A stretch of 46,454 bases of DNA from Shigella phage Sf11 SMD-2017: sequence record MF158038; one strand, given 5' to 3'. The translations under genes and the position numbers were made by a program. Each line of letters begins with the position of its first letter. Within the stretch, counting starts at the first letter, position 1. The notes under the pieces were generated by a model. It did not search any database, was not told where the DNA came from, and was given only the letters and a program-made list of their open reading frames with translations. Positions 18,416-19,273 of the stretch are shown here, piece after piece.

Positions 18416-18709
18416 ATGAAAATTAAAATGTTGATTGCATCTGCTTTACTGGTTTCTTCTTTTTCCGTCAGCGCAACATCAGAGACGTGTAAGAACATTG
18501 GCGACATCGCATTAAACACGGCTGAAGTTCGCGATAACGGTATTAGCAAGAATCTTGCTGAGGTGGTAGTAAAAGGCTCAGCAAAAAACAACGAATCAGC
18601 AGAAATAATCGGGCTTGCTATCGTAGAAATGGTTTATGCACGCAAGGATATGACTAAAGAGCAATTGCGTGATGTATCTGTTGCTTTGTGCGAAAAGAAT
18701 GGCATGTAA
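18416..18709 (+). CDS. Secreted (signal-peptide) protein, candidate superinfection-exclusion moron product
   Basis: N-terminal signal peptide MKIKMLIASALLVSSFSVSA; own promoter; embedded opposite to the tail genes. Confidence 0.55.
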   Translation: MKIKMLIASALLVSSFSVSATSETCKNIGDIALNTAEVRDNGISKNLAEVVVKGSAKNNESAEIIGLAIVEMVYARKDMTKEQLRDVSVALCEKNGM

Positions 18710-18729
18710 TATAAACAAGTTATTAACAG

Positions 18730-18936
18730 TTGAGGTTAGCTATGGATGTTGTTATTTTGTTGTTTTCTGTTGGTTTGGTGATATTCGCTTACCTTCTACC
18801 GTCATTTGTGGCATTGCAAAGAAAGCACACAAATACAACCGCAATCTGCGTGCTGAATATTCTTGTCGGGTGGAGCTTTATTGGGTGGGTCGCAGCTCTG
18901 GTTTGGGCATTAGTTAAAAGTGGCGACAAGAAATGA
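18730..18936 (+). CDS. Superinfection immunity (Imm-like) small membrane protein; likely start ATG 18742
   Basis: C-terminal motif NILVGWSFIGWVAALVWAL typical of Imm-superinfection family membrane proteins; two TM segments. Confidence 0.65.
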   Translation: MRLAMDVVILLFSVGLVIFAYLLPSFVALQRKHTNTTAICVLNILVGWSFIGWVAALVWALVKSGDKK

Positions 18937-19076
18937 ACGAGCAAACAAAAGCTGACATGATTTTCTACACTGAACTGTATGTTGATGCAGGTTACGATTA
19001 CGAAGAAGCTGAACGCATGGCGAAAGACTTGCTTCGTGTGATTGGCGTGATTTTTGATGAGGATAAGGTGATATGA
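18933..19076 (+). CDS. Small hypothetical protein (47 aa)
   Basis: ATGA overlap with upstream stop, acidic small ORF; below the ORF-track size cutoff. Confidence 0.35.
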   Translation: MNEQTKADMIFYTELYVDAGYDYEEAERMAKDLLRVIGVIFDEDKVI

Positions 19077-19273
19077 TCCAGTGGATTAAGTGTAGTGATC
19101 AGATGCCGGAAGAAGGAGCGATGGTTCTTACAGCATTTCGCGGTGTTGTTAGAACTGCGGTATGTAAAGCTGTAGATGGTATTGGCAGTAAGATGTTTGT
19201 TAGTGAATTAGACCGCTGTCACGGCATTCCAGCCACCCATTGGGCTAAATCACCAAAGCCACCACAAGAATAA
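19073..19273 (+). CDS. DUF551-like small protein
   Basis: N-terminal W..C.D.MPEEG..VL pattern resembling DUF551 phage proteins. Confidence 0.45.
   Translation: MIQWIKCSDQMPEEGAMVLTAFRGVVRTAVCKAVDGIGSKMFVSELDRCHGIPATHWAKSPKPPQE

Follow-up and report, generated by a model that had tools for sequence, protein, structure and literature searches.

A moron-like cassette carrying a homologue of T4 Imm within the tail module of a Skatevirus-like siphophage

The window analysed here is a stretch of 46,454 nucleotides from Shigella phage Sf11 SMD-2017 (sequence record MF158038), and all positions refer to it. Within its tail module, four plus-strand ORFs are flanked by two minus-strand tail genes, the cassette being antisense to both (Table 1). 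Positions 18416-19273, the interval in which the original prediction had placed a superinfection-immunity cassette, run exactly from the ATG of ORF1 to the stop codon of ORF4; with the promoter and terminator included, the unit spans 18352-19296. Its G+C content is 41.8%, lower than in the window as a whole (46.0%) and in the flanking tail genes (49.2-52.4%). An alternative-frame ORF that overlaps imm (18669-18917, 82 aa) was treated as spurious, and an Rfam search found no RNA family inside the cassette.

Table 1. Genes and regulatory elements at the cassette locus, in order of position
Feature	Position	Strand	Remarks
Tape measure protein gene, 780 aa	15253..17595	-	ORF list and annotation of relatives
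Left flank: DUF6246 gene	17595..18302	-	PF19759, 244.8 bits; phrog_791
Extended -10 element, TGATATAAT	18332..18340	-	faces the DUF6246 and tape measure genes
Cassette promoter, sigma-70-type: TTGACA-17 nt-TAGATT	18352..18380	+	hexamers conserved in ~50 related loci
ORF1, exported 97-aa protein	18416..18709	+	signal peptide 1-20; phrog_2315
Imm, 64 aa, two predicted membrane helices	18742..18936	+	PF14373; phrog_1039 at 88 bits
ORF3, 47-aa acidic soluble protein, pI 4.1	18933..19076	+	phrog_17424 at 125 bits
ORF4, 66-aa DUF551 protein	19073..19273	+	PF04448, 39.9 bits (cut-off 22)
Bidirectional intrinsic terminator, AAAGCCCC-TTTC-GGGGCTTT	19277..19296	both	hairpin with A-run and T-run
Right flank: major tail protein gene	19304..20020	-	phrog_853, 290 bits

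In GenBank, over 130 phages share the 2.6 kb surrounding the cassette at ~91% nucleotide identity; they belong to the Skatevirus/phage E1 group, which comprises siphophages of Salmonella, E. coli and Shigella of 45-48 kb, and the phage that carries the cassette is a Skatevirus-like virulent siphophage. Relatives in Skatevirus (Skate, SeSz-2, KFS-SE2, KFSST1 and Bas77-81) have the same gene order at ~91% nucleotide identity and vary only in optional modules, namely ORF1, Imm and a DUF2591-like gene. In agreement with the original prediction, no integrase was found. A Pfam scan of the 20 window ORFs of at least 140 aa returned primase, helicase, ParB-like, Mu-F-like and HNH domains and no integrase or recombinase, and neither an integrase nor a repressor appears in the whole-genome annotation of the close relative SeSz-2. 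A paper on a relative that is ~91% identical across the region (PMC12965234) calls the phages of this group strictly virulent.

The cassette had been placed between a tail chaperone gene and the major tail gene. The second of these assignments held (Table 1), whereas the first proved to be positional: searches of Pfam, PHROGs, NCBIfam and the PDB with the left-hand protein returned only DUF6246, "unknown function" (the label of phrog_791) and a weak match to a "putative virion structural protein" (E 0.011). The DUF6246 gene likely starts at the ATG at 18302 and not at 18311; a Shine-Dalgarno sequence, AGGA, lies 8 nt 5' of the former, and the gene is annotated as 708 bp in relatives. It abuts the tape measure gene, which is thereby 1.1 kb from imm. 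The tape measure protein has moderately hydrophobic segments at residues 67-85, 613-631 and 652-670.

The promoter that had been predicted to drive the cassette is present, and its -35 and -10 hexamers are unchanged across ~50 loci from three clades in which the 17-nt spacer is free to vary; the clades in this alignment were set by the identity of their DUF6246 proteins to that of the window (92-98%, ~69% and ~56%). Transcription of the cassette is expected to start near 18387. A promoter with a consensus -35 hexamer and a 17-nt spacer works without any phage factor, so expression could begin as soon as the cell is infected, and the type of promoter suggests that the cassette would be expressed early. 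The pattern TTGAC[A/G]-N17-TAGATT occurs at four sites in the window versus 0.37 expected. Three of these are on the plus strand and belong to the cassette, the tRNA island and a plus-strand ORF at 40809-41369; the remaining site, at 45763, is on the minus strand.

Back-to-back with the cassette promoter lies the extended -10 element of the minus strand, and TGATTATATCA spans 18330-18340. This element is kept in all three clades as TGnTATAAT, where n is A, G or T depending on the clade. The same extended -10 element precedes the major tail gene at 20055-20065, and the two-faced module as a whole (TGATTATATCA, then TTGACA-N17-TAGATT) recurs upstream of that gene at 20055-20100, where it is conserved as well. 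At the other end of the cassette, the predicted bidirectional terminator is a hairpin with an 8-bp G+C-rich stem, situated within the 30 nt that separate the convergent stop codons of ORF4 and the major tail gene, and is common to the cassette on the plus strand and the major tail gene on the minus strand. It is kept throughout the first two clades, carries a compensated G-C to C-G stem swap in the clade of Klebsiella phages, and coincides with two terminators in the annotation of phage Skate. With its own promoter at 20055-20065 and the shared terminator, the major tail gene therefore forms a one-gene transcription unit. The cassette sits at a natural boundary of two tail transcripts, insulated by the shared terminator.

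ORF1 is the signal-peptide protein of the original prediction. It begins with a classical Sec signal (MKIK, a hydrophobic core and VSA/T), and in an AlphaFold model residues 1-20 are disordered and residues 21-97 form a four-helix domain (pLDDT ~90). A divergent homologue in phage E1 has a SignalP probability of 1.000 and is annotated as "exported phage protein", so the export of this protein had already been flagged. ORF1 contains two invariant cysteines (C25 and C92) and an RDxG motif. Identification as a lipoprotein was considered and rejected, since the S-E-T-C that ends at C25 is no lipobox and cleavage of the signal peptide at VSA would occur before this cysteine. An exhaustive profile search with ORF1 returned only 24 clusters of ~100-aa proteins, which share the signal peptide, invariant C25, R39 and C92 and near-invariant D40, G42 and Y74. 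Fold matches in BFVD (TM 0.6-0.8) are uncharacterised or "lipoprotein" entries from phages of Burkholderia, Bordetella, Xanthomonas, Pseudomonas and others. One of the proteins recovered by the profile search is located in a phage replication module.

The second gene encodes the Imm-like protein, which carries the motif GWSFIGWVAALVWAL. A search with the Imm profile, named in the original prediction as a check, was positive: the protein scores 65.9 bits on PF14373 (E 2.9e-18, cut-off 27.9), and T4 Imm itself (translated from NC_000866, 26373-26624) scores 58.2 bits. In a BLASTP alignment, 21 of 63 residues (33%) are identical to T4 Imm without a gap (E 6e-12), and the hydrophobic segments fall at residues 1-19 and 40-58 of the cassette protein and at 4-22 and 39-57 of T4 Imm. 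A single-sequence AlphaFold model of the cassette protein is a helical hairpin (H2-28 and H32-63, pLDDT 82), and the inner membrane is its presumed location. For T4, a 2026 preprint with a 6 Angstrom map (bioRxiv 10.64898/2026.03.06.709160), on which the T4 mechanism rests, reports that Imm and the tape measure protein gp29 are purified together, that Imm touches the helical bundle of gp29, and that the substitutions R33A and W50A weaken exclusion. By pairwise alignment, R33 and W50 correspond to R27 and W44 of the cassette Imm; both are conserved. Because profile score, gapless alignment, shared hydrophobic segments, hairpin model and R27/W44 all agree, membership in the T4 Imm family is well supported, and the cassette protein is a true homologue of T4 Imm. 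Translation of imm starts at the ATG at 18742, as annotated in relatives, and a GAGG Shine-Dalgarno sequence precedes this ATG by 6 nt, as it does that of ORF1. A TTG at 18730 was rejected as a start, since it directly abuts the GAGG at 18732-18735 on its 5' side and is not the start used in relatives.

The two small proteins that had been predicted downstream are ORF3 and ORF4. Each of their ATG codons overlaps the preceding stop codon as ATGA, which suggests translational coupling. Searches of Pfam, PHROG and NCBIfam yielded no family annotation or function for ORF3, and no cassette protein received a name from NCBIfam, where ORF4 reached only 20 bits (cut-off 70) and the other three had no match. 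Genes that can be removed from the relative seszw were judged from the deposited mutant genomes of a genome-reduction study (PMC9825161). Two of these mutants lack the DUF551-like gene alone and are viable, so this gene is dispensable in culture.

Compared with Skatevirus-type relatives, dN/dS is 0.11 for ORF1, 0.05 for Imm, 0.05 for ORF3 and 0.18 for ORF4 (7-32 comparisons), and the flanking tail genes give 0.04-0.06; all four cassette ORFs are under purifying selection. It is vanishingly improbable that the four ORFs, the promoter and the terminator arose by chance in an intergenic or antisense stretch. All that speaks for chance is that three of the ORFs are small, and it is refuted by these dN/dS values of 0.05-0.18, by the Pfam and PHROG matches and by the conservation of the regulatory elements across clades.

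To compare the slot across relatives, 78 IMG/VR loci were fetched via the DUF6246 protein, and the cassette genes were mapped by tblastn and clustering. Among the 32 Skatevirus-type loci the gene order is ORF1, Imm, ORF3, DUF2591-like gene, DUF551 gene, in which ORF1, Imm and the DUF2591-like gene are optional. ORF3 was found by tblastn in all 32. Imm is found in 24 of these close relatives and missing from 8: 12 loci have both ORF1 and Imm, 12 have Imm only, 8 have ORF1 only and none has neither. For this last class about 2.9 loci would be expected if ORF1 and Imm occurred independently of each other (Fisher p = 0.03, uncorrected for ancestry and with linked loci). Every relative with a short tape measure, of about 780 aa, contains Imm, and those without Imm all have a long one, long tape measures in this group having 970-1097 aa, although these counts are small and the loci linked. 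In phages with Imm only, the ATG of Imm occupies the exact position of the ORF1 ATG elsewhere, and both genes share the ribosome-site motif TGAGGTnAnnTATG upstream. The shared ATG position and motif suggest that modules are gained and lost by recombination at ribosome-binding sites. Imm and ORF1 are optional cargo of the slot.

Outside the Skatevirus-type loci the contents differ. In the clade of Klebsiella phages a homologue of ORF3 comes first in the cassette and is followed by different cargo, including a DNA methyltransferase and an HNH endonuclease, and Imm is rare; in the third clade Imm is followed by ORF3. All closer relatives have an island in the slot, whereas among the six most distant relatives, five (L086-L089 and L091) have only 70-333 bp and no island separating the major tail and DUF6246 genes. 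The slot is an old, conserved and modular cargo island with ORF3 as its constant core and with shuffled passengers, not a recent one-off insertion.

It is possible, if doubtful, that the island is an ancient operon kept for the sake of ORF3, which would serve the phage itself, with Imm and ORF1 as interchangeable passengers at a transcription boundary. ORF3 is the only gene common to all versions of the island, occurring in all Skatevirus-type loci, the Klebsiella-phage clade and the third clade while Imm and ORF1 vary; it has the lowest dN of the four cassette genes (0.020), it is kept in every seszw genome-reduced mutant among those listed, and in other clades the slot holds methyltransferases or HNH endonucleases. 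On the other hand, ORF3 has neither a family annotation nor a detectable function in the searches, and it is absent at the slot from all six of the most distant relatives, five of which have closely spaced flanks, so ORF3 is not universally needed. This account is also compatible with a role of Imm in exclusion and would alter only the purpose of the island.

The prediction that the cassette is a moron was supported by the conserved promoter and terminator of its own, the lower G+C content and the lack of the island in most of the most distant relatives. A moron in the sense of Juhala and Hendrix has its own promoter and terminator, flanks that are adjacent in relatives and a deviating base composition, all of which are found here, and the comparison of the slot across relatives, with the flanking genes adjacent in distant ones, brings the unit within the architectural definition. 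Expression from a repressed prophage for the benefit of the lysogen does not apply, given the lack of integrase and repressor and the strictly virulent character of the group. The unit is therefore moron-like in its architecture, though it resides in a lytic phage.

Taken together, the cassette is probably an insulated accessory unit in which Imm would block DNA entry of superinfecting relatives, by analogy via their tape measure protein. Host RNA polymerase would transcribe it from the strong sigma-70 promoter, opposite to the surrounding tail genes, as far as the hairpin that would also terminate the convergent transcript of the major tail gene. Imm would then form a helical hairpin in the inner membrane and, in an infected cell, most likely stop the DNA of a second, related phage from crossing that membrane; by the T4 analogy it would bind the tape measure protein of the incoming phage, so that no channel opens. 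ORF1, ORF3 and the DUF551 protein would be co-transcribed accessory genes, and of the four cassette genes only Imm is linked to exclusion. The role in exclusion and the target are both carried over from T4 by analogy. For the target this is so because identity to T4 Imm is only 33% and the tape measure proteins of T4 and of the cassette phage are not expected to be alike. It also counts against this reading that 8 of the 32 close relatives manage without Imm.

An annotation over-reach, in which the PF14373 protein has another membrane role (lysis timing, membrane conditioning or host takeover) and none in exclusion, is unlikely. In its favour, T4 Imm is the only family member for which an experimental test was found in the literature, with none for a siphophage homologue, and the family is very broad. 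Copies at least 80% identical to the cassette Imm occur in 48 phage records, and any homologue in 1763 records of very different phages, spanning T-even phages, Jerseyvirus, N4-like podophages and actinobacteriophages (Mycobacterium and Gordonia phages); one function across all members is not guaranteed. Further searches added nothing, with a 15-bit match to 2TM-TIR as the sole PADLOC result for Imm, no match in a PDB sequence search and none in NCBIfam. Against such a role stand the whole-length homology to T4 Imm with both key T4 residues conserved and the separate lysis cassette (endolysin, holin and spanin) annotated elsewhere in a close relative. The optional occurrence of imm among close relatives also argues against it, being what is expected of a competition gene and not of a component of the lysis clock.

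The proposed exclusion by Imm can be set against known systems. T4 Imm is likewise encoded by a virulent phage, and both proteins presumably block DNA transfer across the inner membrane. The cassette Imm is shorter (64 aa versus 83 aa) and lacks the C-terminal tail of T4 Imm, and unlike the latter it comes from a non-contractile siphophage. Its gene also differs in setting, lying within the tail module on the opposite strand, whereas T4 imm is found among early DNA-metabolism genes. Another parallel is HK97 gp15, the founding moron, which is also a small membrane protein encoded beside the tape measure gene in the tail operon, its gene lying between the chaperone and tape measure genes. HK97 gp15 is an inner-membrane protein whose gene has its own terminator, and whether it blocks DNA entry is governed by the tail that the incoming phage carries. 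It differs in having a single membrane helix and belonging to the YebO family, as opposed to the two predicted helices of the cassette Imm, in sharing its strand with the tail genes, and in being made from a prophage to the benefit of the lysogen, whereas the cassette unit belongs to a lytic phage. A relationship of Imm to HK97 gp15 or YebO was rejected, as no local alignment with E < 100 was obtained.

A third example is provided by Jerseyvirus (Salmonella phage SF2), in which an opposite-strand island at the equivalent position begins with an Imm homologue that has 40% identity and keeps the equivalents of R27 and W44. This island is bordered by the chaperone-like and tape measure genes on one side and, on the other, by a gene for a "putative tail protein", here taken as the tail tube gene. 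The other genes of that island differ, with no ORF3 or DUF551 gene annotated, and the tape measure proteins of the two phages resemble each other only weakly and only towards the C-terminus (24% over 121 aa, E 5e-4). Three siphophage lineages (the cassette phage, HK97 and Jerseyvirus SF2) thus carry a DNA-entry blocker, or a homologue of one, beside the tape measure gene. This pattern is suggestive of a linkage between blocker and target, and is explained equally well by the boundary of tail transcripts as a tolerant site of insertion.

A two-part exclusion system like that of T4 Spackle and Imm, in which ORF1 would act in the periplasm on the tail tip and Imm in the inner membrane, is very unlikely. 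The superficial likeness is real: T4 Spackle, a periplasmic protein, also has 97 aa, a signal peptide (cleavable in ORF1) and two cysteines (conserved in ORF1), and ORF1 lies beside imm. In addition, no close relative lacks both genes, to which the ancestry-uncorrected statistic given above applies. No similarity in sequence or fold to T4 Spackle was detected, and ORF1 falls into a different family, whose members are small proteins of phages of Gram-negative bacteria that are exported or annotated as lipoproteins. A bolder proposal may be ventured as a long shot. The slot would be insulated and dedicated to exclusion, its promoter-proximal positions filled by Imm or ORF1 as interchangeable genes directed at the envelope, at least one of them always present and kept in genetic linkage with the tape measure protein that they would hinder at entry; ORF1 would represent a new periplasmic exclusion family, and the specificity of Imm would co-vary with the type of tape measure.

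The imm gene of the cassette was already known: most of the annotated relatives, dozens of GenBank entries, label it "superinfection immunity protein" or "immunity to superinfection", and the same gene at this locus is listed under the PHROG category "moron" (PMC12965234). Neither the genome announcement of Skate nor the paper on ZK22 takes up the locus. The anatomy of the slot, as an old modular island with an ORF3 core and optional Imm and ORF1, is the detail added here. The original prediction described the locus accurately and read it rightly as far as homology goes. The cassette is ordinary overall, with a small residual interest in the architecture of the slot and in a pairing that may exist between Imm and the tape measure protein.

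Phages of the Skatevirus group are under development for the biocontrol of Salmonella, and imm is routinely auto-annotated in them. Should Imm act in the predicted way, Skatevirus relatives combined in one phage cocktail could hinder each other, and the natural relatives with and without Imm constitute easy test material for such interference. With imm only a short distance from the tape measure gene, and both naturally variable, this small siphophage would offer a simple system in which to study the specificity of Imm.

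A search for other promoters of the form that drives the imm cassette, TTGAC[A/G]-N17-TAGATT, found two further examples in the window besides the one in the second antisense island described below. The antisense ORF downstream of the plus-strand example had no match in Pfam; its 474-aa neighbour is taken as the large terminase on the basis of where it falls in the gene order of the related phage SeSz-2. According to the annotation of SeSz-2, the structural genes of that phage are broken up by at least six opposite-strand clusters of small genes.

At 20055-20945, a second antisense island separates the major tail gene from the tail-completion genes. 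Its two-faced promoter module is the same as that of the imm cassette, with an extended -10 element on one strand standing back-to-back with a promoter on the other. The promoter is followed by a leader of ~450 nt, in which no convincing plus-strand ORF was found, with a fold z-score of -2.3 and tmRNA-like Rfam matches that were all sub-threshold. Minus-strand ORFs are annotated in this region in relatives.

Features of the window outside the imm cassette
Feature	Position	Strand	Context
Extended -10 side of promoter module, TGATTATATCA	20055-20065		second island
TTGACA-N17-TAGATT promoter	20072-20100		second island
tRNA-Ser(GCT)	20558-20645		second island, after leader
tRNA-Arg(TCT)	20652-20727		second island, after tRNA-Ser(GCT)
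Small ORF	end at 20919		second island, after tRNA-Arg(TCT)
Terminator-like hairpin			last element of second island, after small ORF
Membrane protein, 146 aa, polytopic	within 22425-23182	-	
Membrane protein, 94 aa, C-terminal hydrophobic helix	within 22425-23182	-	
Promoter TTGAC[A/G]-N17-TAGATT	40736-40764	+	upstream of 186-aa ORF
186-aa ORF	40809-41369	+	antisense, adjoins 474-aa ORF 41401-42825
int-alpA sRNA motif	43353-43416	-	between HNH endonuclease ORF 42818-43348 and ORF 43433-43876
Promoter TTGAC[A/G]-N17-TAGATT	45763-45791	-	

The two membrane protein genes at 22425-23182, on the same strand as the structural genes, could be further envelope-directed accessory genes; the SeSz-2 genes that match them in size and position are annotated as 'lipoprotein' and 'membrane protein'. 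Elsewhere in the window, the Rfam int-alpA sRNA motif scored 42.6 bits, above its gathering threshold of 35.8.

For the DUF6246 gene flanking the cassette, the start is more likely to be the ATG at 18302, codon 4 of the longest ORF, than position 18311. This ATG has a Shine-Dalgarno sequence (AGGA) 8 nt upstream, and the gene is annotated as 708 bp in relatives. Its product is a putative tail assembly chaperone by position only, and an overlapping frameshift partner ORF was not seen.

Tape measure proteins were compared between the window gene (15253-17595) and loci L014-L080, and range from 778 to 1097 aa in the Skatevirus-type phages. Each of the 18 genomes whose tape measure was short (<=792 aa) carried Imm, and all 8 genomes lacking Imm had a long one (>=816 aa; Fisher p = 5e-4, uncorrected for linkage or shared ancestry). 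In the relative seszw, imm is naturally absent from the wild type, and mutants deposited in GenBank (e.g. MZ375338, L092) have genomes reduced to as little as ~36-37 kb. Among the records listed, ORF1, which encodes the exported protein, and ORF3 were kept in all of these mutants, and the only cassette deletion seen removed the DUF551-like gene.

The ribosome-site motif TGAGGTnAnnTATG is found upstream of both ORF1 and imm (18404-18418 and 18730-18744), and in relatives that carry Imm only, the imm ATG occupies the exact position of the ORF1 ATG elsewhere. Together, the shared motif and this replacement at an identical position suggest that cassette modules are gained or lost through recombination at ribosome-binding sites.
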